17,121 nt of DNA from Planctomycetota bacterium (lineage in GTDB: Bacteria > Planctomycetota > Brocadiia > Brocadiales > Brocadiaceae): positions 1 through 17,121 of the forward strand of contig JACRII010000057.1 of assembly GCA_016235875.1 (NCBI GenBank). Direction: 5' to 3'. The position numbers were made by a program, and so were the translations under genes. The number at the start of each line of letters is the position of its first letter. The first letter of the stretch is position 1. Below are positions 294 through 17,121 of this stretch, one piece after another. The notes beneath the pieces were generated by a model. That model was given only the letters and a program-made list of their open reading frames with translations, was not told the DNA's origin and ran no database searches.

Positions 294-340
294 AATCTAA
301 TCCTTAGCTCAAGCAAGCCGAAACAAAAACGTATAAAGTG

Positions 341-1297: not shown

Positions 1298-1372
1298 AAG
1301 CTCCTTTGTCCGATACCCTACATCGTAGTAAGGACATACTCATCTAATGATTCAAATAGGAGGTATGAGTTT

Positions 1373-1594: not shown

Positions 1595-1618
1595 TATTTT
1601 CAGATAAGGAGAATTCAC

Positions 1619-1837
1619 ATGAAAGAGAGAATAGAAGAGGCATTGAAACATATCAGACCTGCACTGCAGGCGGATGGCGGCGATATAGAACTTGTAAGCG
1701 TAGAGGGGGGTGTTGTAAAGGTGCGTCTGAGAGGCGCCTGCGGATCCTGTCCCAGTGCATTGATGACGCTGAAATACGGCGTAGAGGAACGTCTCAAGGA
1801 AGAGATTCCTGAAGTAGAATCGGTAGAACTCGCATAG
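1619..1837 (+). CDS. NifU C-terminal domain (Nfu-like) Fe-S cluster scaffold/carrier protein
   Basis: 72 aa. AAGGAG at 1606-1611 lies 7 nt before the ATG. IRPALQADGGDIELVSVEGGVVKVRLRGACGSCPSALMTLKYGVEERL is the canonical Nfu/NifU C-terminal domain pattern, including its CxxC. Confidence 0.85.
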   Translation: MKERIEEALKHIRPALQADGGDIELVSVEGGVVKVRLRGACGSCPSALMTLKYGVEERLKEEIPEVESVELA

Positions 1838-1876
1838 TACATTTTATGTTTGATTTAAACACTGAGGAGTTTCTAA

Positions 1877-2554
1877 ATGAGTTTAGTATTGGGTCCAATC
1901 CATTATTGGATGTTTGGGAAAATAAAAACTACCGAGTCGAGAGAATCTGCCATAGTCTCTGCATTTAAAGAAAAGTACGGTGCAGATGCAGATAAAATAC
2001 TTGATCAGGTGTATAAGAAATATCCAAAAACGAACAATAACAAACCCCTTGAAGAATTGCTGGCCAATAAGTCAATACATCAGGGAATTCAAAGTCTCAT
2101 CGTAGAAGTAGAAACACGGGAAGCCGCAGTAGTTGCCGCCTTCTGTGCCAAATATCCTGATGCCGCAAAAGTAGCAGCAGAGGCCGCACATAAACATGGC
2201 ATTAGTTGTGGAAAAGAGGCCGTTAAAAGCAAAGGGCTGTCAGCGGCAGATTACAACAACACCTCGAAGGCATTTGAGATAATGGGTGACTTTCACAGCG
2301 ACGGAATGCCATGTGATCGTGGTGCACAGGTAGTATCGGAATCTGAAAAATGCACATCCTGGGATCACGAAAGCTGTGTCCATGAACCGTACTGGAAAAA
2401 TGCCGGTGCAAACTTTTTAACGATGTGCGATATTGTCAACGAATGGATTGCAGGATTCGGTGAGGGAGTAAATCCCAAAATCAGTTACAAACGTTCAAAA
2501 ACCCTTGCTGCAGGAGACCCCTCGTGTTTAGGTAGTTTCGAAATAAAGAAATAA
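1877..2554 (+). CDS. Hypothetical protein with Cys/His-rich C-terminal domain (function unknown; C-terminal ...TLAAGDPSCLGSFEI tail resembles ATC-hydrolase/V4R-type GDxxC endings)
   Basis: 225-aa ORF. GAGGAG at 1864-1869 lies 7 nt before the ATG. The stop is 2 nt before the next gene's ATG, so it is embedded in the operon. The C-terminal half carries C146, C159, C167, C184 and C217 plus several His. The family assignment is only a weak recollection. Confidence 0.6.
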   Translation: MSLVLGPIHYWMFGKIKTTESRESAIVSAFKEKYGADADKILDQVYKKYPKTNNNKPLEELLANKSIHQGIQSLIVEVETREAAVVAAFCAKYPDAAKVAAEAAHKHGISCGKEAVKSKGLSAADYNNTSKAFEIMGDFHSDGMPCDRGAQVVSESEKCTSWDHESCVHEPYWKNAGANFLTMCDIVNEWIAGFGEGVNPKISYKRSKTLAAGDPSCLGSFEIKK

Positions 2555-2556
2555 GC

Positions 2557-3582
2557 ATGTCAGATCGTTATGCACGGCAGGTACTGTTCTACGGCATAGG
2601 TAATGAAGGCCAAAAGATACTTATGGAGAAGACTGCCGTGCTCGTTGGCTGCGGCGCATTGGGCTGTACTTCAGCAAATCTTCTCGTCCGCAGCGGAATC
2701 AAATGTCTCAAGATTGTTGACCGTGATTTTATCGAAGAAAGCAACCTGCAGCGCCAATCCTTATTTGACGAAGAAGATATAAACAAAAACCTCCCAAAAG
2801 CTGTTGCCGCACAAAAGAAACTTCAGAAAGTTAATTCCCAAATACAGATCGAGGCAATTGTTGTTGACCTCAGCCCATCCAATATTGAAACTATTCTGGA
2901 GAGCGCAAATATCGTTATCGATGGAACTGATAATTTTGAGTCACGCTTTCTCATCAATGATTATTGTGTGAAACACGGGATACCTTGGATTTACGGGGCT
3001 TGCATTGGGAGTATGGGTTTAACCATGAACATTATTCCATCAAAAACTCCCTGTCTCCGATGTGTACTCGACACTATTCCACCTTTTGGCACGACTGAGA
3101 CATGCGACACAGCAGGAATTATCGCACCCATTGCCAGTATGATTGCCTCTATTCAGGCAGCGGAAGCGCTAAAAATATTAACAGGGAATTACGATGCCTT
3201 GAGTAAAGGGCTTTTGAAGATAGACCTCTGGCATAACGAAATTAAAAAGCTGCATACCGATGATATTCGGGAGAAATCCGATTGTATAGCGTGCAAACTA
3301 CACCAGTATGAATTCCTGTCCAAAGATAGGTATTCAATGACAATCTCCCTGTGCGGCAGAAATGCCATACAAATTTTACACCCTAACGGATCGAATCTTG
3401 ATCTGGCGAAACTTGCAGAACGATTAGAGCATGTGGGTGAAGTGTCTTTTAACCGCTTTCTTTTACGGCTGAAAATAGACATATATGAGTTAACGGTATT
3501 TCCAGATGGACGATTAATTATTACCGGTACTAACGATGCCGCTGTGGCAAAGGGACTTTATGCAAAATATATAGGAATGTAA
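2557..3582 (+). CDS. ThiF/MoeB/HesA-family E1-like adenylyltransferase with C-terminal extension
   Basis: 341 aa. N-terminus is RYARQVLFYGIGNEGQKIL, followed by the nucleotide-binding loop VLVGCGALGC. Also present are DRDFIEESNLQRQ and the two CxxC pairs (PCLRC and DCIAC) that form the structural Zn site in MoeB/ThiF. About 90 extra residues follow the second CxxC. Confidence 0.85.
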   Translation: MSDRYARQVLFYGIGNEGQKILMEKTAVLVGCGALGCTSANLLVRSGIKCLKIVDRDFIEESNLQRQSLFDEEDINKNLPKAVAAQKKLQKVNSQIQIEAIVVDLSPSNIETILESANIVIDGTDNFESRFLINDYCVKHGIPWIYGACIGSMGLTMNIIPSKTPCLRCVLDTIPPFGTTETCDTAGIIAPIASMIASIQAAEALKILTGNYDALSKGLLKIDLWHNEIKKLHTDDIREKSDCIACKLHQYEFLSKDRYSMTISLCGRNAIQILHPNGSNLDLAKLAERLEHVGEVSFNRFLLRLKIDIYELTVFPDGRLIITGTNDAAVAKGLYAKYIGM

Positions 3583-3583
3583 T

Positions 3584-4732
3584 ATGAACTATCTCGATAA
3601 TGCAGCAACAACGTTTCCAAAACCAGAAATTGTATATAAAACAATGGACACCTTTTACCGAACACTGGGCGCAAACCCTGGACGGTCAGGTCACAAGATG
3701 GCAGTAGCGGCAGAAAAGGAAATTGAAGATACCCGTGCGGTTGTCACGAAATTATTAGGTATCAAGAATAGTAATCAATTTGTTTTTACCTTTAATGCAA
3801 CCGACGCCATAAACATGGGGATTAAAGGTTTACTCAAACCCGGAGACCATGCCATTACCACTTATCTCGAACACAACGCCGTATCCCGCGCACTCCATGG
3901 ACTAGAGAAAAGAAAAATAATTACTGTAACCAAAGTAAAAAATTCTCAGGACGGCTTTATTGAACCAGATGATATCAAGAATGCCATCACGCCCAGAACA
4001 CGTTTGATTGTTATGGCGCATGCACCCAATGTCATCGGTACGATCCAGCCCATCCAGGAGATTGGCAGGATCGCAAGAGAAAAGAACGTCATATTTATGG
4101 TAGATGCCGCCCAAACTACCGGTGTGTGTGAAATTGACGTTAACCAATGCTTTATCGATATGCTCGCTTTCACAGGACACAAAGGTCCGCTGGGCCCAAC
4201 TGGAACGGGGGGGTTGTATGTGGGAGAAGGGGTAAACCTTGAACCGTGGAGGGAAGGGGGGACAGGTTTTGAACCGGCCTCATTATCCCAGCCGGAAGAA
4301 CTACCTTTCAAGCTGGAGAGTGGCACACCAAATACCGTCGGTATCGCAGGACTCAGGGCAGGGGTAGAATATGTTCTATCCAGAGGAATTCAGACGATCA
4401 GAAAACATGAACAAAAATTAACCGGCAAACTCATAAACGCTTTAAAGGATGACCGGCGATTCATTTTGTACGGAACTACGGATATTTCCAAAAAGGTTGG
4501 TATCCTCTCCATAAATATCAAAGGATTTAAGCCCGCAGAAGTCGGCGCCATTCTTGATCAATCCTTTGACATTGCCGTTCGCACTGGTCTCCACTGCGCT
4601 CCCTTTGCGCATCAGGTGTTGGGCACGTTTCCAGACGGTACTGTCAGAGTCAGTCCGGGATGTTTCAATACAGAAGCGGACGTAAACCAACTCATAACCG
4701 CACTGGATAAAATCGCAAGTGAAAAAATATAA
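3584..4732 (+). CDS. Cysteine desulfurase family protein (class V PLP aminotransferase fold)
   Basis: 382 aa. The ATG is 1 nt after the upstream TAA. The N-terminus YLDNAATTFPKP, the PLP-lysine context AFTGHKGPLGPTGTGGLY, and the C-terminal RTGLHCAP (catalytic-Cys loop) are typical of the NifS/CsdA-like family. Confidence 0.85.
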   Translation: MNYLDNAATTFPKPEIVYKTMDTFYRTLGANPGRSGHKMAVAAEKEIEDTRAVVTKLLGIKNSNQFVFTFNATDAINMGIKGLLKPGDHAITTYLEHNAVSRALHGLEKRKIITVTKVKNSQDGFIEPDDIKNAITPRTRLIVMAHAPNVIGTIQPIQEIGRIAREKNVIFMVDAAQTTGVCEIDVNQCFIDMLAFTGHKGPLGPTGTGGLYVGEGVNLEPWREGGTGFEPASLSQPEELPFKLESGTPNTVGIAGLRAGVEYVLSRGIQTIRKHEQKLTGKLINALKDDRRFILYGTTDISKKVGILSINIKGFKPAEVGAILDQSFDIAVRTGLHCAPFAHQVLGTFPDGTVRVSPGCFNTEADVNQLITALDKIASEKI

Positions 4733-4752
4733 TTAAATATTCCATCTATATT

Positions 4753-4929
4753 ATGTACTGCAGATACGAAAATCGTGGGCGTTGTGAATTGAACAAGAAA
4801 GAGTGCGTTCCCACTTCAAAGGGATGCGTTATAAAAACCGTTCCGGGTGTTACATTGATTGGTGATACAAAAAAGCAGTCACCCAAAAAAGACGACATAT
4901 CAGTTAAGAATAAACAATCGAGTCATTAA
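4753..4929 (+). CDS. Possible small Cys-rich protein (58 aa), below the ORF-track length cutoff
   Basis: My own translation gives MYCRYENRGRCELNKKECVPTSKGCVIKTVPGVTLIGDTKKQSPKKDDISVKNKQSSH. Four Cys are regularly spaced (C3, C11, C18, C25). The ATG is 20 nt after the desulfurase stop. No SD is visible. The 3' end overlaps the convergent queC by 26 nt. Confidence 0.25.
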   Translation: MYCRYENRGRCELNKKECVPTSKGCVIKTVPGVTLIGDTKKQSPKKDDISVKNKQSSH

Positions 4930-5575
4930 TACCTGCTTCTTTAAAGGCCTTTAACCGTAGGAAACAGCTATGACATACGCCGCAGGCTTTATCCGTGTTT
5001 TTGTAACACGACCAGCTCAGGTGGAAGGGGGCATTTAAAGAAATGCCCATTTTCACAATCTCTGATTTGCTTTTGCTAATGAGCGGGGTTTCCACCTCGA
5101 TGCATGTTGTGGGTTTCGTCCCTGCCTTGATAAGTTTGTTAAAGGTTTCATAATAAATTGGCCTACAATCGGGATAACCAGGGCTGTCCTGTTCCACAGC
5201 GCCAATAAATACCTTCTTCGCCCCAATAACCTCTCCCCAGGAAACGGCAATGGTCAAAAAAAGCGTGTTTCGAAAGGGGACATATGAGGTGGGAATTTCT
5301 TTGCTGTTTAACTGTGCATCCTGAACGGTCATGCTCAAATCCGTTAGACTCGAACCACCAATCTTGCCCAAATAATCAATGTTAGATATGAGAATCCTTT
5401 CTTCTGGAATGTTGTAGAATGCTGCAATATCCCGAAAAGCCATAAGCTCCCGCGATTCTGTGCGCTGATTGTAGTTAACGTGTAAGAGCGCAATCTGGTA
5501 TTGTGTATTCGCAATAGCCGCAGTTACACAGCTATCCATTCCACCGCTTACCAGTACTATAGCTAATTCTTTCAT
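4904..5575 (-). CDS. queC: 7-cyano-7-deazaguanine synthase
   Basis: 223 aa. The N-terminal PP-loop is AIVLVSGGMDSCV, and the C-terminal Zn-binding cysteine cluster is SWSCY...CGVCHSCFLR. Both are diagnostic of QueC. Confidence 0.92.
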   Translation of the reverse strand: MKELAIVLVSGGMDSCVTAAIANTQYQIALLHVNYNQRTESRELMAFRDIAAFYNIPEERILISNIDYLGKIGGSSLTDLSMTVQDAQLNSKEIPTSYVPFRNTLFLTIAVSWGEVIGAKKVFIGAVEQDSPGYPDCRPIYYETFNKLIKAGTKPTTCIEVETPLISKSKSEIVKMGISLNAPFHLSWSCYKNTDKACGVCHSCFLRLKAFKEAGINDSIVYS

Positions 5576-5634
5576 GGAAAATTTATCTCACCGCTTCCTT
5601 TGCGTTCTCTGCGTCTTTGCGGTAAATATCTATT

Positions 5635-6270
5635 TTAAACTCCTCTTGTTTGTGGCTCCCAGATATATTTATGGAGTTGGAGCTGAAATCGCACATCGAG
5701 ATTATCTTCCAAAATCCATTGAACAACCGTTTTAGGAGAAATTTTGCCAAAGGCGGTTCCTACTAGTACTCTGGCAATTTTGGGTAAATTATATTTCTGA
5801 ATTACGGCCTTCGTCCAGTCATAATCATTCCGTGAACTTAAAACGAATTTCACCTCATCCAGCTTGGCCAGATAGTCGATATTTTGCCAGTTCATTAGAT
5901 GACTCATATTGCTGTCAGGACACTTGATATCCATAATTTTAATGGCTTTTTGAGGTATCGTGCGGATGTCGTAACTCCCGTTCGTTTCGACTAAAACAGT
6001 GTAATTTTTATTCAGTAACGCTTCAAGTAAAAACGGCGTGTCATTATTTGACAGCGGTTCACCTCCAGTAACACAGACTATTTTAGTCTTGAATCTGGCA
6101 ATGCATTCAAGAATAGTACTCAAGGACATTTCATTCCCTTCATCATAGGCGTAAGTGGTATCACAGTAGCTGCAACGTAAATTACAACCCGTTACACGTA
6201 TGAAGGCGCAAGGGAGGCCGGCGTAAGATGTCTCTCCTTGAATACTCTTAAAGATTTCGTTAATTTTCAT
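5635..6270 (-). CDS. queE: 7-carboxy-7-deazaguanine synthase (radical SAM)
   Basis: 211 aa. INEIFKSIQGETSYAGLPCAFIRVTGCNLRCSYCDTTYAY is the QueE N-terminus with the CxxxCxxC-type cluster motif. It sits directly upstream of queC on the same strand. Confidence 0.9.
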   Translation of the reverse strand: MKINEIFKSIQGETSYAGLPCAFIRVTGCNLRCSYCDTTYAYDEGNEMSLSTILECIARFKTKIVCVTGGEPLSNNDTPFLLEALLNKNYTVLVETNGSYDIRTIPQKAIKIMDIKCPDSNMSHLMNWQNIDYLAKLDEVKFVLSSRNDYDWTKAVIQKYNLPKIARVLVGTAFGKISPKTVVQWILEDNLDVRFQLQLHKYIWEPQTRGV

Positions 6271-6416
6271 AGGTTTTAATTTTATTAAATATGTGGGAGT
6301 AAAGCAAGCTCTGTAATACGGTATATTTAAGTTAGGAAAAAATATTTATTGAATAATTCCATTAATTATGAGATATTATTGTACAAAACGGGGCAACGAG
6401 ATTCTTCACGGAGTTT

Positions 6417-6470
6417 ACCCTGAGCAAAATTAGACCCTTCGCGCTGCTCAGGGTGACAAAGACGAAGGGT
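6417..6470. other. Interleaved inverted repeats (a-b-a'-b' order, H-type pseudoknot topology) in an intergenic spacer
   Basis: ACCCTGAGCA (6417-6426) is the perfect reverse complement of TGCTCAGGGT (6445-6454). ACCCTTCG (6434-6441) is the perfect reverse complement of CGAAGGGT (6463-6470). The 5' arm of the second stem lies in the loop of the first, and the 3' arm of the first lies in the loop of the second. Confidence 0.6.
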
Positions 6471-6528
6471 TCATAATAAATATAACTATTACCCTGCGGA
6501 TATTTTCGATACAAGAAAGGGAGGAATT

Positions 6529-7140
6529 ATGGCAACAATTTTGAAAGAAGATATTTTACGTAGGAAAAATAAGGAAACCAGCAGCAAAGAAAAGGTCGAC
6601 AAGATAATGAGCACGATAGTTGCACCACCCGTGCAATCGAACCTGCCAAAATCAGAAAGTAAAGAAAGCAAGCCAACCTCAGAAACAGTAAAACCTGCAG
6701 AAAGTACCGCAAGGCAGCATATCCTCAGCAGCGAAATATTGATAGAAGGAGAGTGTTCATCTGAACTTGACGAGATCAGAAACAGGCTTTTAAAAGAATT
6801 AAAACCTTCCGGTGAAATAGAATCAATTCTTGTGGATCGCATCGTTTCTGGTGTTTGGCGATTGAAACGGTGTTTGAAGATTGAAAGCCAGATAATAGAG
6901 TTTGAGTCGTCCGGCATTCAGGAGTACGAGCAAGGATTTTTTAGGACTAGAAAGAGAACAAATAAAGAACTGTCTCAATTAAGGGCTTTAAAAATAACTG
7001 AAGGTAAAAACAGGCTTGAGGAATTATCCAAATATGAAACCATCTTGGAAAGACAAATATATAAGGCATTAAGTGTACTGGATAAACTCAGACAAAATGG
7101 ATCAGTATCAGAAAAGAGGGTGTCAAGGAAGGCAAAATAG
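6529..7140 (+). CDS. Hypothetical protein (Ser/Lys/Glu-rich N-terminus, helical/coiled C-terminal half)
   Basis: 203-aa ORF. A strong SD (GGGAGG at 6517-6522) lies 6 nt before the ATG. I recognise no family. It contains the pattern SGEIESILVDRIVSGVWRLKRCLKIES. Long non-coding spacers flank it on both sides. Confidence 0.7.
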   Translation: MATILKEDILRRKNKETSSKEKVDKIMSTIVAPPVQSNLPKSESKESKPTSETVKPAESTARQHILSSEILIEGECSSELDEIRNRLLKELKPSGEIESILVDRIVSGVWRLKRCLKIESQIIEFESSGIQEYEQGFFRTRKRTNKELSQLRALKITEGKNRLEELSKYETILERQIYKALSVLDKLRQNGSVSEKRVSRKAK

Positions 7141-7160
7141 GTGTGTTGCGTTTTGGACAG

Positions 7161-7189
7161 GTAGAGACAGGTTTAAAACCTGTCTGTAC
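7161..7189 (+). terminator. Hairpin downstream of the 203-aa ORF (possible weak intrinsic terminator)
   Basis: GTAGAGACAGG (7161-7171) pairs with CCTGTCTGTAC (7179-7189): 11 bp with one G/G mismatch and a 7-nt loop, TTTAAAA. Only TTT follows, so the U-tract is poor. It starts 21 nt after the stop codon. Confidence 0.4.
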
Positions 7190-7431
7190 TTTGGACACAT
7201 AGCGAAAAAGAAACGAATATCCAAAGTTTGTCAAAACTTCCCAACATTATAACATAATATATATTATCAGACGTTACAAATTTGATTAGGTGCGCTACTC
7301 TGTCGATGAAATTTTTGCAGTCGTGAGGTTTATGGATTTATAAGTTTCGGCTGCAATCGGCATGAACCCACTCCCCTCAATTTGATTTCGATACTCAGTA
7401 ATTTCTTTTCTATCAAGCTTAAAGAATATTA

Positions 7432-7460
7432 TTGACAAGATAAATTATGTCTGCTACTAT
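7432..7460 (+). promoter_or_regulatory. Sigma-70-like promoter for the ACP-led operon
   Basis: TTGACA (7432-7437), an exact 17-nt spacer, and TACTAT (7455-7460), with AT-rich sequence upstream (AAAGAATATTA). This predicts a leader of roughly 70 nt before the ACP start at 7536. An imperfect dyad GACA-N10-TGTC (7434-7451) overlaps the -35 element and spacer. Confidence 0.5.
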
Positions 7461-7535
7461 GTTTTCGTTGTTTTCAAAATTACTATGAATATATATGTGT
7501 CTTTTGTTTCGGTAGTTTAATAAAGGAGGATAATT

Positions 7536-7805
7536 TTGAACGCTGGAGAGATTGAAAAAGGTGTAACCGCTATTGTTGCAGAGGTTACTGAGTTAGACGA
7601 AAAGGAGATTTGGGACAAAAGAGATGCAAATTTCTTTAAAGACCTTGAGATAGATTCCCTTTTAGCCTTAGAGATTCTGGCACTCATTGAAAAGAAGTTT
7701 AAAGTGCAAATACCTGAAGAAAAGCTTGTTGATATTACCTCATTAAACGCAACAATTGATTTAACAAAATCAGTATTGGCAGAGAGCGGCAAACTCACCT
7801 CATAA
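7536..7805 (+). CDS. Dedicated acyl carrier protein
   Basis: 89 aa. The TTG start is effectively forced: an in-frame TAA lies at 7521-7523, the protein has no internal Met, and GGAGG at 7525-7529 sits 6 nt upstream. FFKDLEIDSLLALEILALIEKKF contains the DSL phosphopantetheine-attachment serine (Ser41, codon 7656-7658) at the start of helix II. Confidence 0.9.
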   Translation: MNAGEIEKGVTAIVAEVTELDEKEIWDKRDANFFKDLEIDSLLALEILALIEKKFKVQIPEEKLVDITSLNATIDLTKSVLAESGKLTS

Positions 7806-7841
7806 GATGCTTGATACATAGCGCAACAAGACACAAACCAA

Positions 7842-7892
7842 TTACCCCCCTTTATTTACCCTTCTTAATGAACGGTAGATAAAGGGGGGTAA
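7842..7892 (+). terminator. Strong stem-loop between ACP and fabZ (partial terminator, attenuator or mRNA-stabilising hairpin)
   Basis: TTACCCCCCTTTATTTACC (7842-7860) pairs with GGTAGATAAAGGGGGGTAA (7874-7892): 19 bp with one G-U wobble that is allowed only in the plus-strand RNA, and a 13-nt loop. There is no clean U-tract after it (AACTTTATTAAAAATTT). Confidence 0.55.
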
Positions 7893-7988
7893 AACTTTAT
7901 TAAAAATTTAAAGCATAATATTTATTATTGTGTAATACGATTACCGAGTAATACTTTACATGATTAACACAAAAAAAGCATACTTACA

Positions 7989-8441
7989 ATGATATTATTT
8001 GAGGAAATTCGATCTCTTCTTCCTCAAAAATATCCTTTTCTATTTATTGATAAGGTTGTTGAGTTCGAAGAGGGGAAAAAAATCGTTTGTATCAAAAATG
8101 TATCCGGCAACGAACCTGTCTTTGTCGGACATTTCCCTGATTTTGCCATCATGCCAGGTGTCTTGATCATCGAGGCGATGGCACAGGCTTCTATTATCTT
8201 ATTCAGGAAGAGCCTCCCCCCTCAGCAAAACGACAAGAATACCGTTTTTTTATTAGCATCAGTCAATAATGCACGGTTTACAAAACCTGTATTCCCCGGC
8301 GATCAACTCTTCATAGAAATCATCGTGGAAAAAATTGTCTCCAAGGGCGCTATTGTTCAGGCAACGGTAAAAGTTGAAGAAAAAACCGTTGCGAAGGCAT
8401 CGTTGACCTTTGGCATTGCAGAAAAAAGTGCTTTGGTATAG
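7989..8441 (+). CDS. fabZ: 3-hydroxyacyl-ACP dehydratase
   Basis: 150 aa. LLPQKYPFLFIDKV...VFVGHFPDFAIMPGVLIIEAMAQ is the canonical FabZ hot-dog signature, with the catalytic His (GHFP) and Glu (IEAMAQ) intact. No SD precedes the ATG. Confidence 0.92.
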   Translation: MILFEEIRSLLPQKYPFLFIDKVVEFEEGKKIVCIKNVSGNEPVFVGHFPDFAIMPGVLIIEAMAQASIILFRKSLPPQQNDKNTVFLLASVNNARFTKPVFPGDQLFIEIIVEKIVSKGAIVQATVKVEEKTVAKASLTFGIAEKSALV

Positions 8442-8444
8442 TTT

Positions 8445-9665
8445 ATGAATAAACGTGTTGTTATAACAGGCGTAGGAATGATCACCCCTATCGGGTCAGG
8501 AAAGGACACATTTTGGAAGGCCCTTATTGCAGGGGCGTCTGGTGTGGACAACGTGACGTGCATAGATACTTCCGGCTATAAGGTTCATAAAGGATGTGAA
8601 GTTAAAAATTTCAATTATGCGGATTACATAAAAGACGACATTCTCAAAAAAATTGGCAAAGGTTCGCAATTTGCGATAGTAGCCACAAAGCTGGCTTTAA
8701 ACGATGCCAGGCTTGATTTGAATAAGACTAACTTAGAACGGATTGGGGTCTCTGTTGGAACAACCGCAGGAGAAATACAAATCCTGGAAAAAGTTAATTA
8801 TATCAGGCATAAAGATGGTGAAGATAAGGTCGACCCAGACCTGTTTTTGAAGCATCCTTGTAATAACATCCCGGCTAATATTGCTATTGAGTTTGGTTTG
8901 AAAGGTCCCAATACGATTATACCCACTGCCTGCGCTGCGGGTAATTATGCAATTGGATATGCCTATGACTTGATTAAGTTTGGAAGGGTGGACATGATGT
9001 TTGCCGGCGGTTCAGACCCTTTTTCGAAAGTTGCCTATACGGGATTCGCCAGACTGGGCGCTATTGCCCCTGATATCTGCCAGCCCTTTGATAAAAATAG
9101 AAAAGGCATGATGGTGGGTGAAGGCGCTGGGATGCTTCTTCTGGAATCGCTTGACCATGCAACAAAGAGAAATGCGAATATTTATGCTGAAATTATCGGT
9201 TATGGGCTTAGCTGTGATGCGTACCATATTACAATTCCTCATCCAGACGGCGAAGGTGTTGTCTCTGCTATGAAAAAAGCACTAAAAAGCGCAAACCTGA
9301 GTCCTAAAGATGTCCAGTATGTTAGTGCACATGGAACGGGAACTCCTGCGAATGACAAGGCTGAAACGATTTCAATTAAAAAGGTGTTCGGGGATAAACC
9401 CAGTAATCTTGCAATTAGTTCCATAAAATCAATGATTGGACATACCATGGGGGCAGCTAGCGCTATTGAGGCAATTACTTGCGCATTAGTTGTCCAGAAC
9501 GATATAATTCCTCCAACGATAAATTATGAAACGCTGGATCCGGAATGTGATCTGGACTATGTACCCAATGTTATGAGAAAACAACGGGTAAATATTGCAC
9601 TGAACAACGCCCATGCATTTGGCGGTAACAATAGTTGTCTGGTTGTAAAAAAGTTCACAGGATAA
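8445..9665 (+). CDS. fabF: Beta-ketoacyl-ACP synthase II type ketosynthase (catalytically complete)
   Basis: 406 aa. The ATG is 3 nt after the fabZ stop. The active-site Cys is in [12 protein letters not shown] (Cys163, codon 8931-8933). The two His are in [11 protein letters not shown] and [30 protein letters not shown] and the C-terminal [14 protein letters not shown] are also present. This is the full FabF/KAS II signature set. Confidence 0.92.
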
Positions 9666-9674
9666 AAAAGGTTT

Positions 9675-10919
9675 GTGATGGAAAAAACGAGAATCGTTAT
9701 TACAGGTGTTTCGGTTATCTCGCCTCTTGGGGCAGACAAGGATATTTTTTGGAAAAATTTAACCGAAGGTGTATCGGGTATAAAACCCGTCACCCTGTTC
9801 GATGTAAGTAAATTTAATAGCAAGCAGGCGGGAGAAATCTCTGGTTTTGATGCCAAGATTTATCTTGGTCAAAAAGGAATCCGACATATCGATAGAACCT
9901 CGCTCCTTGTATCATCAGGAACGGTTCTTGCCATCAAAGATGCGAACCTCGAAAACAATACCTATAGCGGTGATGAGCTGGGCATTGTCGTCGGCTCTAC
10001 CTATGGAAGTATTGACAGCATCAGTTCCTTTGATTTCCAGTCTTTGCGCGAAGGTCCCAGTTATGTCAATCCCATGGACTTTCCTAACACCGTGTTGAAT
10101 GCGCCAGCAAGCCGTGCCTCTATTTTCTGTAAGGCCACAGGACTCAATACCACCATTTCAAACGGCGTGACAAGCAGTATCGATGCTATTATTTATGCCT
10201 CTGATTTCCTTCGTATGGGTCGTGTAAAGGCAGCAGTTGTAGGCGGTGTACATGGATTAACCCATGACATATTTTGGGGTTCACATAATTCAAAGATACT
10301 GGCTGGCAGCAAGAACGGAACGCCGGAAATTTGCGCTCCATTTGATAAGAGGCGCAATGGAATGATTATTGGCGAGGCATCGGCGTTAGTTATTCTGGAA
10401 ACTTTGGAAGACGCTTTGAAGAGAAATGCGCATATATATGCTGAAGTTAAGGGTTACGGAACTGCATTCGAGCCTAAAATGGCCGTCAGCAAAGAATATC
10501 AAATAGACGGTAACAGGAGAGCCATTATGAACGCTCTTAATGACGCCAATCTGACACTGCATGACATTTCCTATATCTCCGCCAATGCCTATTCCGGTAT
10601 TCATGGCGATGCTCTTGAAACTAAAGTTATCAAAGAAGTCTTTGGTATGCGATCAAAACTCATCCCTGTGTCAGCTATAAAATCTATGACCGGTGAGTGT
10701 TTTGACGCCTCAGGTGCATTACAAACCATAGCCGCATTGATGTCCATCAAAACACACACAATTCCACCCACTATAAATTATAAGGAACCGGATACAGAGT
10801 GTGATTTAGATTACGTGATCAACAACAGCAGGGCTGTCCCAGTCAAGAACGTCCTTATAAACTCTTTCTCCCGATTGGGAAATAATTCATCCTTAATTAT
10901 CTCCAAATACAAACCGTAA
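9675..10919 (+). CDS. Ketosynthase homologue lacking the Cys-His-His triad (chain-length-factor-like, probably non-condensing partner subunit)
   Basis: 414 aa, with a GTG start at 9675 or an ATG at 9678. It aligns without gaps to the upstream KS over the conserved blocks (VITGVSVISPLG, RRNGMIIGEASA, HIYAEVKGYG, IPPTINY..D.ECDLDYV). The catalytic Cys position reads NGVTSS (Val; codons about 10164-10178). First His becomes Met (EPKMAV). Second His becomes Asn (ISANAYSG). The GH of KSMxGH becomes GE. Confidence 0.85.
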   Translation: MMEKTRIVITGVSVISPLGADKDIFWKNLTEGVSGIKPVTLFDVSKFNSKQAGEISGFDAKIYLGQKGIRHIDRTSLLVSSGTVLAIKDANLENNTYSGDELGIVVGSTYGSIDSISSFDFQSLREGPSYVNPMDFPNTVLNAPASRASIFCKATGLNTTISNGVTSSIDAIIYASDFLRMGRVKAAVVGGVHGLTHDIFWGSHNSKILAGSKNGTPEICAPFDKRRNGMIIGEASALVILETLEDALKRNAHIYAEVKGYGTAFEPKMAVSKEYQIDGNRRAIMNALNDANLTLHDISYISANAYSGIHGDALETKVIKEVFGMRSKLIPVSAIKSMTGECFDASGALQTIAALMSIKTHTIPPTINYKEPDTECDLDYVINNSRAVPVKNVLINSFSRLGNNSSLIISKYKP

Positions 10920-10922
10920 TTC

Positions 10923-12377
10923 ATGCTGTCTTCCGATACGTGTATTCAATCCACAAAAAAGGATATGCTATATCCTTATTATGATGCGATTGTGATTGGC
11001 TCGGGCGTAGCAGGATTAGTATGCGCTGCATTTCTTGCCAAATGTGGAAAAAAAGTGCTTATGGTGGAGCAACATTTCATTCCCGGAGGTTATTGTACTT
11101 CTTTTAAGCGAAAGGGTTTTACCTTCGATGCCGCAGTTCATCATATTGGCGGTTGCGGAAAATGGAGTGTTGTCGGTCGCTGCTTTAAGACACTTGGGAT
11201 TGGAATGGATTTCTATCCTCTCGACCCAATGGATCACCTGATTTTCCCCAACTTCAGCATTGAAATTCCAGCCGACCTGGATGAGTATATCGCACGTTTA
11301 CAGGATCGTTATCCATTGGAAAAAGACAACATTAAAGATTTTTTCCAGGATTTTATAAAACTCTACCGCGCTACATTTAACAATGAAAAGAGTCAAATTA
11401 TTGATAAATATAAGGATCAAACATATGGCGAGATGTTAGATGCCTTTTTTAAGAACGACGAACTCAAGATGATACTTGCCGGCCAATGGGGATACATAGG
11501 TCTCCCCCCTACTCAGGCATCCGCTATTGCAATGTGTCAAATGATGATCAATTATCTCAAAGACGGCGCATTTTTTCCTGCGGGTGGTACGCAAGAGTTT
11601 GCTAATGCAATTTTTAAGAAATTTATTGATTTTGGCGGACATGTTATGCTATCATCAAGAGTCAAGAAAATCCTTCTGAATGGTAGTTCCGTAAAAGGCA
11701 TTAAGTTACAGGATGGTAAAGAAATTTACTCCGGTTTAGTTGTGTCGAATGCTGACGCCAGGCAGACTTTTTTTGACCTATTAGAAGGTAAATCCGATCC
11801 ATCCTTTCTTAAAAAAGTTGAGGAGATGAGAGAAAGTTGTTCCTTCTTTCTTTTATATTTAGGCGTTGGAGGTGATGTAGATTTAACGAAGGTAAAGAGA
11901 GGGTTTTATCATACGGCCACAGATGCAAGCGCTATGGACAAAGAATGGTTATATATTTCCGTTCCAACAAAAATAAGTCCTACCCTTGCACCTTCAAATA
12001 AGCAAATAATATCTGTGGTTGTCTATTTGAATAAAGCGATGTATAAAAACGTTACCGATTGGAAATCTTTTAAAGAACGCATGACATTACAAACGATCAA
12101 TAGATTAGAATCATATATTCCTGATTTAAAAAAATATATCGAAGTAAAAGAGTCAGCTACACCGAAAACCCTGGAACGTTACACATCAAACACAAGCGGA
12201 GCTGCTTATGGCTGGGAAGTCACGGTCGACCAAATGTGGGAGAATAGACTATCACAGAAGACACCGATTGAAAATCTATATTTAACAGGTCATTGGACAA
12301 GACCAGGTCCTGGGATTTGTGCCGTTGTCTCTTCGGGATGGAGCGTAGCTAATTTAATTATGGAGAATTGGAGGTAA
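10923..12377 (+). CDS. CrtI/phytoene-desaturase-family FAD-dependent oxidoreductase
   Basis: 484 aa. The ATG is 3 nt after the upstream stop. The N-terminal dinucleotide fold is YDAIVIGSGVAGLVCAAFLAKCGKKVLMVEQHFIPGGYC. The C-terminal GAAYGW...NLYLTGHWTRPGPGICAVVSSG block is typical of CrtI/CrtD-type desaturases and isomerases. Confidence 0.85.
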   Translation: MLSSDTCIQSTKKDMLYPYYDAIVIGSGVAGLVCAAFLAKCGKKVLMVEQHFIPGGYCTSFKRKGFTFDAAVHHIGGCGKWSVVGRCFKTLGIGMDFYPLDPMDHLIFPNFSIEIPADLDEYIARLQDRYPLEKDNIKDFFQDFIKLYRATFNNEKSQIIDKYKDQTYGEMLDAFFKNDELKMILAGQWGYIGLPPTQASAIAMCQMMINYLKDGAFFPAGGTQEFANAIFKKFIDFGGHVMLSSRVKKILLNGSSVKGIKLQDGKEIYSGLVVSNADARQTFFDLLEGKSDPSFLKKVEEMRESCSFFLLYLGVGGDVDLTKVKRGFYHTATDASAMDKEWLYISVPTKISPTLAPSNKQIISVVVYLNKAMYKNVTDWKSFKERMTLQTINRLESYIPDLKKYIEVKESATPKTLERYTSNTSGAAYGWEVTVDQMWENRLSQKTPIENLYLTGHWTRPGPGICAVVSSGWSVANLIMENWR

Positions 12378-12385
12378 ATAAAAAT

Positions 12386-13846
12386 ATGAGTAGAAAAATG
12401 ATGTTAATTAATCCACATAAACCGGGCAGGCATGGTGAGGAGAGTATTACGGTAATCGTTCAAATGCCTTTAAATCTTGCCTACGTTGCCGCTCTTACAC
12501 CCGGTGATTGGGAATTTGACGTTATCGACGAAAATATTGAATTGGCAATAAACGATAATGATGAACTCACTTTTAAACCGGTAGACCTTGTGTGTATTAC
12601 CTCAGTTACCTATCAGTCTCCCAGGGCATACAAGATTGCAGCCGCTTGCAGGAAAAAGGGCATGACAGTAATCATGGGTGGAATACATGCATCTGTTGTG
12701 CCTGAAGAGGCCGCAAATTACGTTGATGCTGTTTTTGTGGGTGAGGCAGAAGAAGTGTGGCCACAGGTCATAAAAGATTTTGAAGCAGGAAAATTAAAAA
12801 AGGTCTACCAGGGCGGCTTACCCCCCCTTAGCCTGATGAAGAAGGTGTATCCAAACCGCGAACTCTTGAAAAATAAATACAACTATAAATTTTCTTCCAT
12901 CGTAACAACAAAAGGATGCCCCAACTATTGTGATTTTTGCAGTGTACCCACATTCCAGGGCAGAAAATTCAGGGAAAGACCTTATGAAGATGTCCTCGAT
13001 GAGATGGCAGCCACAGATTACAAGGGATTGATGTTAGCGGAAGATAACTTCTACGGTCATGGAAAAAAATCAAACGAGAGGGCACGAGATCTTTTCAAGG
13101 GAATGGTGGAACGTGGCATACACAAAGACTGGTTAGGATTCACGGCGTTAAACATCTCTCAAGACCAGGAAACATTAGATTATATGGCCAAGAGCGGCAA
13201 TTTTGGTATGCTTATCGGTATAGAATCTACGAATGAGGCCGTTTTGGAGAAAATGAATAAACGTGTGAACCTGAAGTTGGGTACCGATAGTTATTTTGAT
13301 TGTATCCAAAAGATTCACAACGCCGGCTTGGTTGTCTGGGGTTCCGTGGTATTTGGGGCCGATGGAGACGACAAAGATTCTTTTAAAAGAATGACTGAAT
13401 TTATATTGGAAAACAATATTGATATTCTCACCTTTGGCATTAACTGTCCCTTCCCCAAGACGCAACTCTATGCAAGACTGGATTCAGAAAAGAGGATTTT
13501 CAGGAAAAATTATCCGGAGGATTGGCAATATTACGATACAGCCCATGTGGTACACCGTTTCGTAGACATGTCATTGGAAAACTTTATTGAAGGCATGCAG
13601 TATGTTTATGACCATATTTATGCAGGTGATAACCTAAGGACACGATTCAGAAACTCAATTAAAACAACAAAGAATCCCAGAAACTCCATGTTTGCATTCA
13701 GGGTGGGTTCGGATTGGAAACAAGTTTTTGAACAAGTATTGCAGAATTTGAAGGAATTATACGATTCAGGCGATTATTATCAGGACTGGTACAAATCAAG
13801 TGCAGTACCTGTTTCAAAGCCAGTTATGGAAACAGTAACCACATAA
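12386..13846 (+). CDS. B12-binding-domain radical SAM enzyme (class B rSAM)
   Basis: I prefer the ATG at 12386 (MSRKMMLINP...), with GGAGG at 12370-12374. The track's TTG at 12368 would overlap the upstream gene by 10 nt. The N-terminal cobalamin-binding-like domain reads DLVCITSVTYQSPRAYKIAAACRKKGMTVIMGGIHASVVPEE. The radical SAM motif GCPNYCDFC (CxxxCxxC) is encoded at 12917-12940. Confidence 0.85.
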   Translation: MSRKMMLINPHKPGRHGEESITVIVQMPLNLAYVAALTPGDWEFDVIDENIELAINDNDELTFKPVDLVCITSVTYQSPRAYKIAAACRKKGMTVIMGGIHASVVPEEAANYVDAVFVGEAEEVWPQVIKDFEAGKLKKVYQGGLPPLSLMKKVYPNRELLKNKYNYKFSSIVTTKGCPNYCDFCSVPTFQGRKFRERPYEDVLDEMAATDYKGLMLAEDNFYGHGKKSNERARDLFKGMVERGIHKDWLGFTALNISQDQETLDYMAKSGNFGMLIGIESTNEAVLEKMNKRVNLKLGTDSYFDCIQKIHNAGLVVWGSVVFGADGDDKDSFKRMTEFILENNIDILTFGINCPFPKTQLYARLDSEKRIFRKNYPEDWQYYDTAHVVHRFVDMSLENFIEGMQYVYDHIYAGDNLRTRFRNSIKTTKNPRNSMFAFRVGSDWKQVFEQVLQNLKELYDSGDYYQDWYKSSAVPVSKPVMETVTT

Positions 13847-13880
13847 TACGGTAAATAGGCATATGAATTCTTAATGGAAT

Positions 13881-13925
13881 TTATAAAGGCACATCAATTT
13901 CATAATTGTTGATGTGCCTTTATAA
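13881..13925 (+). terminator. Intrinsic-terminator-like hairpin closing the lipid operon
   Basis: TTATAAAGGCACATCAA (13881-13897) is the perfect reverse complement of TTGATGTGCCTTTATAA (13909-13925): 17 bp with an 11-nt loop. The GC-rich core GGCACATCAA/TTGATGTGCC is followed by TTTATAATT. It starts 35 nt after the radical SAM stop codon. Confidence 0.6.
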
Positions 13926-13963
13926 TTGATAATAATCATGGTTTTGTGTTCGGCGGTTATGTC

Positions 13964-14380
13964 ATGGAAAATATCCTGAACCGAATTAGAGATTTCAGTA
14001 AAAAGGTTGAATTATTTTATGTGGCAACATCAAACCAAAAGAAAGAGGTACACCTCGCGGTAGCGAAGGGTTTGATTTTTTTACCTGACAATGAACATGT
14101 GGCTTTCAAGTCGTGGTTTTGCAAAAAAACAATAGAAAATATTCTTGAGAACCCGAATATATCTATTGCTATCTATGATACGAAGACCGATATGGGTTAT
14201 CAAATAGTTGGCAGAACAGTCTCAAAAAACGTGGTAGCTGTTTTAGATGGTTACTCACCGAGGTTGGAAAAGATTGAAAAAGAATATCCACAGGAAGAGT
14301 ATCAGTTGAAAGTAAAAATTATAAACATTATGGATTTACACAGAGTAGCTCATTCTGACAAGTATCTTTTACTTAATTGA
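13964..14380 (+). CDS. Pyridoxamine 5'-phosphate oxidase-like (FMN-binding split-barrel) family protein
   Basis: I prefer the ATG at 13964 (MENILN...) over the track's GTG at 13946. LFYVATSNQKKEVHLAVAKGLIFLPDNEHVAF...TIENILENPNISIAIYDTKTDMGYQIVGR follows the usual PNPOx-like pattern (..aT.....P....k.......l.F......T..Nl..NP.vs..v.d....g.qi.G.). The family call is from memory. Confidence 0.5.
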   Translation: MENILNRIRDFSKKVELFYVATSNQKKEVHLAVAKGLIFLPDNEHVAFKSWFCKKTIENILENPNISIAIYDTKTDMGYQIVGRTVSKNVVAVLDGYSPRLEKIEKEYPQEEYQLKVKIINIMDLHRVAHSDKYLLLN

Positions 14381-14420
14381 TTTTCGTCCATAACATCTTA
14401 ATTTCAGAAGGAGGTGAAAC

Positions 14421-14549
14421 ATGATAGGCAAGTTATTATCTTTATCAATGGAGAAATCGATCATTCCGGATATTAGTCCAAAAGCAATTATGGTTATTGC
14501 CATTGCGCTAATATTCGTTATATTATTCACCTGGAAAAAGGAGGGATAA
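14421..14549 (+). CDS. Small single-pass membrane peptide (42 aa), below the ORF-track cutoff
   Basis: My own translation gives MIGKLLSLSMEKSIIPDISPKAIMVIAIALIFVILFTWKKEG. An excellent SD (AAGGAGGTG at 14408-14416; the GGAGG core is 6 nt before the ATG). A C-terminal hydrophobic helix is followed by KKEG. Its last codons (AAG GAG GGA TAA) provide the SD for the next gene, whose TTG start abuts the TAA. Confidence 0.55.
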   Translation: MIGKLLSLSMEKSIIPDISPKAIMVIAIALIFVILFTWKKEG

Positions 14550-15983
14550 TTGCCTGAGAGAAGCGCTGCCTTCGATCTGGTAATCATTGGTGGCGGGCCT
14601 GGCGGTTACGTATCCGCTATAAAGGCTGCTCAGCTTGGAATAAAGACTGCACTCGTCGAAAAGAATAAAGTTGGTGGTACGTGTTTGCATCAGGGTTGCA
14701 TCCCGACAAAGGTACTTTTATATTCTGCGGACATTTACCGTAAGTTACTTAAGGCACATGAATATGGAATTACTTTTGATAAAGTAGGGATTAATTATCC
14801 ACAGTTTCATCGACGCAAAGAGTCCGTCGTTAAACGATTATTCCAGGGAACGCAATTTCTCCTCAAAAAAAATGGCGTTGAGGTCTTTGAAGGCGAAGGG
14901 CAACTCACTTCTGCGCATAACGTATTAGTTAAAAAAAAGGGAACAGACATTGTTGAATTAGCAGCAAAAAATGTTATCTTGTCTACCGGTTCTGTTCCAC
15001 TCATTCCCTCTACAATTCCCTGCGATGGGAAATACGTACTCACCAGCGATGACATCTTATTACAGGAAGAAATTCCTAAATCTATTATTATAGCTGGTGC
15101 CGGTGCTGTAGGAATTGAGTTCGCGTATCTTTTTAATATCCTTGGTTCAAAAGTTACCATCGTAGAACTTCTGGATGACGTTCTTCCTGCTGAAGACAAA
15201 GAAATCCGCGCTACTTTAAGGAAATTACTTACGAAAAGAGGTGTAGACATTTTAACAAATACCTCGTTAGAAAAGGTCGAAGTTGATAATGGCGTCCGTG
15301 TAGAAATAAAAAGCAAGATTGATACCCCCCGCTCCCCTACCACAACCGAAAATAAGGAATATTTACAAGCAGATTATTTACTCCTTGCCTTGGGTAGAAC
15401 ACCAGCCTTGGCACATCTTGGACTAGAAAAACTGTCATTAAGTTTTAAAGGAAAATATTTGCAAACGAATGAAGTTATGGAAACCAGCCAAAAGGGACTC
15501 TATGCAATTGGAGACATTACCGGTACTCCCCTTCTAGCTCATAAGGCTTCAAATGAAGGTCTATGTGCCGTTTCTCACATTGCCGGCAAAGAAACTACCC
15601 CAATAAATTATCAAAACATCCCACGGGTGACATATTGCTCTCCACAGGTAGCAAGTGTAGGTCTTACACAGGATGAGGCTGAAAGCAAAGGATACAAAAT
15701 AAAAGTGGGAAAATTTCCACTCATTGCCAATAGTAAGGCCATTATTGACGGAGAATATGAGGATGGATTTGTAAAGATTATTGCAGATGAAAAATACGGT
15801 GAAATATTGGGAGCGCATGCCGTAGGACCAAATGTGGGAGAGTTGATGTGGGGTATCTCACTTACCACACTTTTAGAAGGTACGGCTTCTGAGCTATCGA
15901 GAAATATATACCCCCACCCTACTCTTTCTGAAGCAATTCTAGAGGCTGCCCATGCAGTTGTTGATAAAGCGATACATTTATGA
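14550..15983 (+). CDS. lpdA: Dihydrolipoyl (dihydrolipoamide) dehydrogenase
   Basis: 477 aa. The TTG start is forced: an in-frame TAA lies immediately upstream, there is no ATG before the Rossmann fold, and GGAGG at 14540-14544 sits 5 nt upstream. Motifs present: FDLVIIGGGPGGY, the redox-active disulfide GGTCLHQGCIPTK, a second dinucleotide fold IIAGAGAVGIEFA, and the C-terminal HPTLSE interface motif. Confidence 0.92.
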   Translation: MPERSAAFDLVIIGGGPGGYVSAIKAAQLGIKTALVEKNKVGGTCLHQGCIPTKVLLYSADIYRKLLKAHEYGITFDKVGINYPQFHRRKESVVKRLFQGTQFLLKKNGVEVFEGEGQLTSAHNVLVKKKGTDIVELAAKNVILSTGSVPLIPSTIPCDGKYVLTSDDILLQEEIPKSIIIAGAGAVGIEFAYLFNILGSKVTIVELLDDVLPAEDKEIRATLRKLLTKRGVDILTNTSLEKVEVDNGVRVEIKSKIDTPRSPTTTENKEYLQADYLLLALGRTPALAHLGLEKLSLSFKGKYLQTNEVMETSQKGLYAIGDITGTPLLAHKASNEGLCAVSHIAGKETTPINYQNIPRVTYCSPQVASVGLTQDEAESKGYKIKVGKFPLIANSKAIIDGEYEDGFVKIIADEKYGEILGAHAVGPNVGELMWGISLTTLLEGTASELSRNIYPHPTLSEAILEAAHAVVDKAIHL

Positions 15984-16011
15984 TTATATGTCTGGAAATT
16001 TCTAAAGTTTT

Positions 16012-17121
16012 ATGAAAGCATCAGATTTACTTGTAAAATGTTTGGAAAACGAGGGTGTTCGCTATATCTTCGGAATCCCCGGCGAGGAAAACATAGACAT
16101 CCTCGACTCTTTGTTGGATTCAAAGATACAATTCATTCCGACACGCCATGAACAAGCCGCTGCTTTTATGGCGGATGTCTATGGCCGGTTGACGGGTAAG
16201 GCAGGTGTATGCTTATCCACGCTCGGACCCGGGGCTACCAATCTTGTAACGGGCGTTGCCGATGCCAATCTGGATCGAGTGCCCCTTGTTGCTATTACCG
16301 GCCAGGCTAGTCTCGACCGGATGCACAAGGAATCTCATCAATACATGGACACCGTTGCTTTATTCAAGCCAATTACAAAATGGAATACCCTTGTTCATAC
16401 AGCCGACATTATCCCTGAAGTTGTCAGGAAGGCATTTAAACTTGCCCAGATGGAAAAACCAGGCGCTACTCACATTGACTTTCCAGAGGACGTAGCAAAG
16501 GCAGACCTCATAGCTCTACCAATTCCCTTGAAAGCAGAGGCACATATCCCCTACCCCACCGAAGAGACATTAGGAATTGCCGCACAGTTAATTTCAGATG
16601 CAAAATACCCGGTTATTCTTGCGGGAAATGGCGTCATCAGATCTCAAGCTTCTGAATCTTTAACAAACTTTGCAGTAAAATTAAATATACCTGTAGCCAC
16701 CACGTTTATGGGCAAAGGAGCTATCTCAGATGATTGGCCACTCTCCTTGCTTTCAATTGGCCTGCGGGATGATGACCATATTTCTTGCGGTTTTGACCAG
16801 GCAGATTTAATTATCGCTATTGGATATGACCTTGTGGAATACCCCCCCTACAAATGGAATCCATATAAGTCAAAGAAGATACTTCACATCGACGTTACTC
16901 CCAGCGAGGTAGACGCCTATTATAATGTTGATATGGAAGTAATTGGTAAAATTTCTGAAACCCTTGACCATTTGTCTGGTATGGTCAGAATAAAAGAGAC
17001 AAAACATATTATCAGTATTTTGCGAAATTCAGTTACAGAAGAATGCAAAACTACACACGACGATACATCATTTCCCATGAAGCCTCAAAAAATATTGTGC
17101 GTTGTGCGCGAAGTATTAAAA
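16012..17121 (+). CDS. Thiamine-diphosphate-dependent acetolactate-synthase-family enzyme, N-terminal 370 codons (continues beyond window end)
   Basis: My own translation from the ATG at 16012 is open to the window end (1110 nt, no stops): MKASDLLVKCLENEGVRYIFGIPGEENIDILDSL...TRHEQAAAFMADVYGRLTGKAGVCLSTLGPGATNLVTGVADANLDRVPLVAITGQ... This is the classic ThDP Pyr-domain signature of the AlsS/IlvB family. It is absent from the ORF track because it has no stop codon. Confidence 0.88.
   Translation, partial: MKASDLLVKCLENEGVRYIFGIPGEENIDILDSLLDSKIQFIPTRHEQAAAFMADVYGRLTGKAGVCLSTLGPGATNLVTGVADANLDRVPLVAITGQASLDRMHKESHQYMDTVALFKPITKWNTLVHTADIIPEVVRKAFKLAQMEKPGATHIDFPEDVAKADLIALPIPLKAEAHIPYPTEETLGIAAQLISDAKYPVILAGNGVIRSQASESLTNFAVKLNIPVATTFMGKGAISDDWPLSLLSIGLRDDDHISCGFDQADLIIAIGYDLVEYPPYKWNPYKSKKILHIDVTPSEVDAYYNVDMEVIGKISETLDHLSGMVRIKETKHIISILRNSVTEECKTTHDDTSFPMKPQKILCVVREVLK

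Follow-up and report, generated by a model that had tools for sequence, protein, structure and literature searches.

A triad-less ketosynthase of the anammox Cluster I in a Brocadiaceae genome is very probably the inert, chain-length-factor-like partner of its neighboring ketosynthase

The window analyzed in this study is a 17,121-nt stretch of DNA from a Planctomycetota bacterium of the family Brocadiaceae (assembly GCA_016235875.1, contig JACRII010000057.1, positions 1–17,121), in which two adjacent forward-strand genes encode ketosynthases (KSs), the intact amxFabF2 (KS1) and its triad-less paralogue amxFabFmut (KS2). With high confidence, KS2 is regarded as the inert subunit of an obligate heterodimer with the upstream KS1, as part of the anammox gene set Cluster I. 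In the proposed mechanism, because only KS1 bears the Cys-His-His triad, it would carry out the chemistry, namely acyl transfer, decarboxylation of malonyl-acyl carrier protein (ACP) and Claisen condensation. KS2, predicted to retain the thiolase fold as well as the dimer interface, would insert a helix-loop-helix (Phe135, Thr138, and Val139) into the acyl-tunnel wall of its partner, contribute roughly one half of the surface on which ACP docks, render KS1 active, and bias the complex toward short (C6–C8) acyl chains; the short product would feed ladderane synthesis via the phytoene-desaturase-like (PDH-like) and radical SAM (rSAM) enzymes of the cluster. Orthology, loss of the triad, retention of the tunnel residues, synteny and purifying selection are observed for the lineage of the window. 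The dead-partner interpretation is thus supported, but already known, the substitutions having been described in 2009 and the heterodimer in 2026. The features central to this interpretation are:

8445–9665, forward strand: amxFabF2 (KS1), active ketosynthase of 406 aa, with both KS Pfam domains and with triad and gate intact
9675–10919, forward strand: amxFabFmut (KS2), triad-less ketosynthase paralogue, probable chain-length factor (CLF)-like partner, with PF00109 and PF02801 and orthology to chain C of PDB entry 9S5H
10077–10097, forward strand: amxFabFmut segment with Phe135, Thr138, and Val139 (B. fulgida numbering), placed by motif position, predicted to line the partner acyl tunnel as reported for the orthologue (Granatino et al., preprint, bioRxiv 10.64898/2026.05.19.726425, May 2026)

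The open reading frame (ORF) at 9675–10919 encodes 414 aa from a GTG codon and matches PF00109 (1.4e-33) and PF02801 (5.3e-23). Its true start is probably ATG 9678 (413 aa), because an AAGG lies six bases upstream (9668–9671) and the residue numbers then agree with those of the B. fulgida orthologue. Aligned by BLASTP with the adjacent KS1, from whose ORF it is separated by 9 nt, KS2 is 35% identical across 407 alignment columns (E 2e-80), and the single gap, of 6 residues, is distant from the catalytic motifs. In this alignment, the TACAAG, DAYHIT, SAHGTG, and KSMIGH motifs of KS1 correspond to NGVTSS, EPKMAV, SANAYS, and KSMTGE of KS2, so that Cys is replaced by Val165 and the three His by Met269, Asn304, and Glu341, respectively. 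The key residues of KS1 are Cys163, His296, His333, Lys328, and Phe392; KS2 keeps Lys336 of the KSMxG motif and carries Arg instead of Phe at the gate position. A phmmer alignment to FabF of B. subtilis (4LS6), made independently, and MAFFT alignments with ~100 and ~165 homologues yielded the same four correspondences, and no indel that restores a catalytic Cys or His was found in any of the three kinds of alignment. The FabF triad consists of the Cys, the His of HGTG and the His of GH, and the His of AYHIT (DAYH) is conserved but non-catalytic. A preliminary description of the window had stated that the Cys, both His and the GH motif were lost; all four substitutions were confirmed, although that wording counts three His, of which two are catalytic. 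The fold and dimer-interface blocks that it quoted, RRNGMIIGEASA, HIYAEVKGYG, IPPTINY, and CDLDYV, were likewise found in KS2. KS2 scores below the cut-offs of the FabF models, with 323 bits for TIGR03150 (cut-off 493.75) and 317.4 bits for PRK07314 (cut-off 387). The substitution pattern is not a chance one, because it is the same in all 48 Brocadiales orthologues scored.

Both ketosynthases have close counterparts among characterized anammox proteins. KS2 matches chain C of 9S5H from B. fulgida with 804 bits and 86.4% identity in a gapless alignment, with identical Phe135, Thr138, and Val139, and KS1 matches chain B with 836 bits and 90.6% identity. Judged by sequence, the product of 9675/9678–10919 is the orthologue of amxFabFmut (Kuste3606/Broful02170). 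The active-site deviations of Kuste3606 were described as Val163, Asn298, Tyr300, Gly302, Lys328, Glu333, and Arg392 (Rattray et al., 2009; PMC2649909), and the active-site residues of KS2 match the Kuste3606 row in Table 2 of that work. The names amxFabF2 and amxFabFmut, and amxFabFhet for the heterodimer, are those of Granatino et al. (10.64898/2026.05.19.726425), who reported that the two proteins of K. stuttgartiensis and of B. fulgida co-purify on co-expression and that each is inactive alone, while both decarboxylation of malonyl-amxACP and formation of acetoacetyl-ACP were obtained with the complex. In the crystal of the B. fulgida heterodimer there is one productive tunnel, which runs through the amxFabF2 triad and part of whose lining comes from Phe135, Thr138, and Val139 of amxFabFmut; when these amxFabFmut residues are mutated, the probe-length preference changes, C6–C8 being favored over C16, and amxACP touches both subunits (ACP-complex structure 9S5I) (Granatino et al., preprint). 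The complex was considered by its authors as a KS/chain-length-factor-like heterodimer. Hence the CLF-like pairing of a dead KS with the adjacent active one, as proposed in the preliminary description, was demonstrated with the orthologues of K. stuttgartiensis and B. fulgida, and by analogy the heterodimer, the joint-only activity and the tunnel geometry would carry over to the proteins of the window.

Several points weigh against this interpretation. The biochemistry is known for the orthologues only and comes from a preprint, in which no elongation past acetoacetyl-ACP was detected and the evidence on chain length comes from a non-physiological crosslinking reaction (10.64898/2026.05.19.726425). 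The implication of Cluster I in ladderane lipids is an indirect one. Further, the net charge of the helix-loop-helix and its partner helix, from a sequence count that ignores three-dimensional structure, is negative in both subunits; the reported opposite electrostatics rest on three-dimensional surface potentials and were not reproduced by the residue count.

A scan for related loci with one genome per species gave 59 of them. The closest loci, with 93–100% protein identity, belong to Brocadiaceae metagenome-assembled genomes (MAGs), including Candidatus Wunengus sp., and the best genome matches of KS2 itself are from Brocadiaceae with 81–99% identity. The six-gene order is the same in ~50 Brocadiales species genomes. 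The Cys-His-His triad was present in all 47 Brocadiales KS1 orthologues scored and in none of the 48 KS2 orthologues scored. At six tracked positions, the KS1 orthologues carry Cys/His/His/Lys/His/Phe, one of them (locus L008) being gapped at the gate position. In the KS2 orthologues, the Lys is always retained, the second His is always replaced by Glu or Asp, and at the former Cys position Brocadiaceae have Val, B. sapporoensis Ile and ~11 deep-branching lineages Glu; the orthologues with Glu or Ile are those of loci L034, L038–L047, and L019. Only Val and Thr, the latter in S. brodae, were named for this position in the preprint (10.64898/2026.05.19.726425). A variable residue at the former nucleophile argues against a new catalytic role at that position. 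The tunnel residues Phe135, Thr138, and Val139, by comparison, are invariant in 48 of 48 KS2 orthologues. The ratios of nonsynonymous to synonymous substitutions (dN/dS, Nei-Gojobori method) in comparisons with unsaturated dS were 0.05–0.06 for KS2 and 0.04–0.10 for KS1. KS2 is under strong purifying selection and is constrained as much as the active KS1.

These data bear on the possibility that KS2 is a functionless, decaying duplicate of the adjacent KS, an explanation to which we assign hardly any probability. The loss of all catalytic residues and the tandem arrangement with a paralogue would fit it, but the full-length frame is intact in ~50 genomes at divergences down to 60% identity, dN/dS is ~0.05 and as low as that of the active partner, and both FabF homologues are expressed in Kuenenia. 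For practical purposes, a pseudogene reading of KS2 is refuted by the selection and conservation data.

Conservation and selection would also be expected if KS2 were an independent enzyme with another chemistry, such as the recruitment of a separately made ladderane moiety into fatty acid synthesis of type II (FAS II) suggested by Rattray et al. (2009; PMC2649909). A second tunnel within amxFabFmut itself, in which a polyethylene glycol molecule was bound in the crystal, and the position of Glu341 and a Cys at 342 close to the former active site also speak for such an enzyme. We nevertheless consider it improbable, as the Cys position holds no nucleophile and, unlike a catalytic residue, is variable (Val/Ile/Glu, and Thr in S. 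brodae); moreover, the orthologue alone gives neither activity nor crosslinking, and ACP docking is predicted at the amxFabF2 entrance and not at the defunct tunnel (Granatino et al., 10.64898/2026.05.19.726425).

The genes at 7536–13846 are the anammox Cluster I (KustE3603–3608), in the order amxACP, amxFabZ, amxFabF2, amxFabFmut, PDH-like gene and B12 rSAM gene. The FAS-like operon postulated in the preliminary description is borne out, as the genes for ACP, FabZ, the intact KS and the dead KS stand in this order and all have solved anammox counterparts. The dead KS gene is located downstream of the intact one in the window and in all ~50 loci examined, which corresponds to the order of KSbeta after KSalpha in type II polyketide synthase (PKS) clusters; the preprint places amxFabFmut just upstream of amxFabF2 (10.64898/2026.05.19.726425). 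Besides the two KS genes, the following features were assigned:

7432–7460, forward strand: match to a sigma-70-like promoter (TTGACA-17-TACTAT, preceded by a TG), candidate cluster promoter 5′ of the ACP gene
7536–7805, forward strand: acyl carrier protein amxACP, anammox-specific, with PF00550, a TTG start, an AAGGAGG ribosome-binding site and a DSL phosphopantetheine site
7842–7890, forward strand: strong intergenic hairpin in the ACP–FabZ spacer (dG −37.4 kcal/mol, z −8.7)
7989–8441, forward strand: amxFabZ, 3-hydroxyacyl-ACP dehydratase, with PF07977 and NF000582 (156 bits)
10923–12377, forward strand: CrtI/phytoene-desaturase-like FAD oxidoreductase of the Kuste3607 type, with PF01593 and PF13450, syntenic in ~50 genomes
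12368–13846, forward strand: B12-binding rSAM enzyme of the Kuste3608 type, assigned by PF04055, PF02310 and synteny
13946–14380, forward strand: PNPOx-like flavin-binding protein with PF01243, directly 3′ of the B12 rSAM gene

The amxACP product scores 149.9 bits against PDB 7AUF and 145.4 bits against chain E of 9S5I, and amxFabZ 261 bits against 8AYD and 201.6 bits against 7QV0. The CrtI-like product reaches 184 bits with TIGR02734, under the cut-off, and the top NCBIfam match of the rSAM product is TIGR04072, a lipid-biosynthesis B12/rSAM family, also below the cut-off. The PNPOx-like ORF is kept 3′ of the rSAM gene (75–90% aa identity) only in Wunengus/Brocadia-type loci, and no counterpart was detected in the Cluster I loci of Kuenenia or Scalindua examined; it is possibly an accessory gene that Cluster I has in certain lineages. 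Promoter and terminator scans of the region gave match numbers no higher than in shuffled sequence. The hairpin between the ACP and FabZ genes is a perfect one of 19+3 bp inside a 183-nt spacer; long structured spacers at this place occur only in the near relatives of the window, as compared with 33–80 nt in Brocadia, Kuenenia, and Scalindua. It may serve as an attenuator or an mRNA stabilizer, by which the ratio of ACP to enzymes would be set, or it may be a repeat element inserted at this place. The genes flanking the cluster appear unrelated to it. Upstream (341–6270) lie genes for CcsA-like cytochrome c assembly (reverse strand), a ThiF-family protein, a class-V aminotransferase, QueC (reverse strand) and a QueE-like radical SAM protein (reverse strand), and downstream (14550–15983) one for dihydrolipoyl dehydrogenase.

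Relatives of KS2 were then sought outside the anammox bacteria. The best 120 matches of a word-indexed homologue search comprised anammox orthologues only. When 1.84 billion cluster representatives were searched exhaustively, the best 150 relatives, which were then classified, comprised 75 stand-alone proteins without an intact triad, 39 fusions, 13 intact KSs and 23 megasynthases. The stand-alone triad-less proteins keep the Lys in 72 of 75 cases and carry Glu at the second His in 62 of 75, and an NPxxFPNTV motif of the tunnel-lining loop is common to most of them. The fusions, ~820 aa long, join an intact KS to a triad-less second half; the ~39 representatives concerned (P0122–P0263) are roughly 800–830 aa. 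Such natural fusions are genetic evidence that KS/dead-KS pairs work as one unit. In a neighbor-joining tree, a simple method applied to a sample biased toward KS2-like proteins, KS2 fell into an all-dead clade with at least 90 of the 107 triad-less sequences (96 of 100 bootstraps), and KS1 grouped with the intact partner domains. A profile of the dead clade found in the PDB a sole solved member, 9S5H chain C (600 bits), and NCBIfam holds no model for the clade, all members of which stay under the generic FabF cut-offs.

Such pairs were also found in three related contexts outside Brocadiales. The complete ACP–FabZ–KS–dead KS–PDH–B12 rSAM order was found in locus L060 (644–12079; Logan SRR32147499, 56% GC), which also has two additional B12 rSAM paralogues and two additional KS genes. 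This locus is equidistant from all Brocadiales lineages (KS2 47–49%, KS1 58–60%, and rSAM ~60%), and it could represent a sister or donor lineage of the anammox Cluster I. A partial copy at a contig end of a Thermodesulfobacteriota MAG (L052, 3021–7185) encodes ACP (62%), FabZ (57%), KS (58%), and a triad-less KS (42%), preceded by genes for a BadF/BcrA-type ATPase and a DUF362 Fe-S protein. It recalls the synteny with Desulfotalea that had been pointed out by Rattray et al. (2009; PMC2649909). Acidobacteriota MAGs (L054–L056, and L057 at 4289–11028) carry ACP, a KS with 55% identity to KS1 and a triad-less KS with 35–38% identity to KS2, in which Leu/Gly occupies the Cys position, Ser/Ala the first catalytic His and Glu the second; in L057 the dead KS gene is followed by an HMG-CoA-reductase-like gene, a short-chain dehydrogenase/reductase gene and an amine oxidase gene. 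Three further representatives have short or heterogeneous contexts that match no known pathway, with KS′–ketoreductase–ACP in one and FabA/ApeI-like, ACP, GCV_T, and fused KS–KS′ in another.

These results suggest that the KS/dead-KS module predates the anammox cluster and has a wider distribution. On balance, and with odds only somewhat better than even, we favor the view that the dead subunit neither arose in anammox bacteria nor is a recently degenerated copy of FabF, but belongs to a large, uncurated, FabF-derived triad-less clade spread over many phyla, and that the module, perhaps with the entire cluster, has been inherited or transferred and is not strictly diagnostic of ladderanes. The clade, distinct from classical KSbeta and ApeC, is one modest addition to the known picture.

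Ladderane lipid synthesis is an open problem of bacterial lipid biochemistry, and the foremost candidate locus for it is Cluster I. The presence of two FabF genes in this cluster would be accounted for by the dead KS, as parts of a KS/CLF-like machine with a short-chain preference, and this pairing speaks against the earlier proposal in which a ladderane unit made beforehand is coupled by the mutated paralogue. As this insight is already published, the window contributes an orthologous example, and support from ~50 genomes for triad loss, tunnel invariance and selection. If the clade indeed extends beyond anammox bacteria, the cluster would not be strictly diagnostic of ladderane producers, and the wider dead-KS family could provide genetically tractable hosts for study.

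Compared with known systems, KS2 is best matched, outside its orthologues, by housekeeping FabF (B. subtilis 4LS5/4LS6, and E. coli 2GFW), with which it shares fold and length; these enzymes are homodimers with Cys-His-His in each subunit, in contrast to the triad-less KS2. In phmmer searches of the PDB, KS2 scored 255 bits with FabF but only 142 with actinorhodin KSalpha and 137 with KSbeta, and the profile of the KS2 clade scored 428, 316, and 278 bits, respectively. These scores bear on whether KS2 is a classical type II PKS KSbeta that primes by decarboxylating malonyl-ACP at its own site. As in the actinorhodin-type KSalpha/KSbeta pair (1TQY), an active KS is accompanied by an adjacent, full-length, Cys-less paralogue whose gene directly follows it; in that system the dead subunit of the heterodimer shapes the tunnel, and the orthologous anammox heterodimer does decarboxylate malonyl-ACP (10.64898/2026.05.19.726425). 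The KSbeta explanation is nonetheless very improbable, given the scores for FabF vs. KSbeta, the Val instead of Gln at the Cys position (Val/Ile/Glu among KS2 orthologues), the loss of both His for decarboxylation, and the FabZ gene, by which the operon encodes a reducing, FAS-like system that prefers short acyl chains. The statement of the preliminary description that KS2 cannot be a Gln-type primer therefore holds, with Val165 at the Cys position, and decarboxylation by the heterodimer presumably takes place at the intact subunit.

The CLF likeness claimed there stands as far as the KS/CLF-like heterodimer of the orthologues is concerned, but, to judge from alignment scores, the Val at the Cys position and protein length, KS2 belongs neither to classical KSbeta nor to the ApeC family. 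The Iga11/Iga12 pair (6KXD–F), from the highly reducing type II PKS that makes ishigamide, is likewise a KS/CLF heterodimer whose substrates are reduced acyl chains, and Iga11 was reported as the nearest structural neighbor of amxFabF2 (10.64898/2026.05.19.726425); KS1 scored 335 bits with 6KXD_A. The CLF chain of 6KXD was absent from the best 60 PDB matches of KS2 and of the KS2-clade profile, and amxFabFmut and the Iga CLF do not appear to be closely related. ApeO/ApeC of aryl polyene synthesis (6QSP, and the A. baumannii structures) also combine a KS with an inactive partner in a FAS-like type II cluster; however, ApeC is about half-size and corresponds to one thiolase half, whereas KS2 is full-length (413–414 aa) with PF00109 and PF02801.

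The closest known system remains that of the amxFabFmut orthologues (Kuste3606, Broful02170, and Scabro02228; 9S5H and 9S5I). The window differs in its host, which is of another genus-level lineage, closest to Ca. Wunengus and groundwater Brocadiaceae MAGs, and in the long hairpin-bearing ACP–FabZ spacer and the PNPOx-like gene 3′ of the rSAM gene in that lineage. With the orthologues it has in common the Val/Asn/Glu substitutions, the retained Lys, Arg at the gate, the residues of the tunnel, a host that is an anammox bacterium and the six-gene context.

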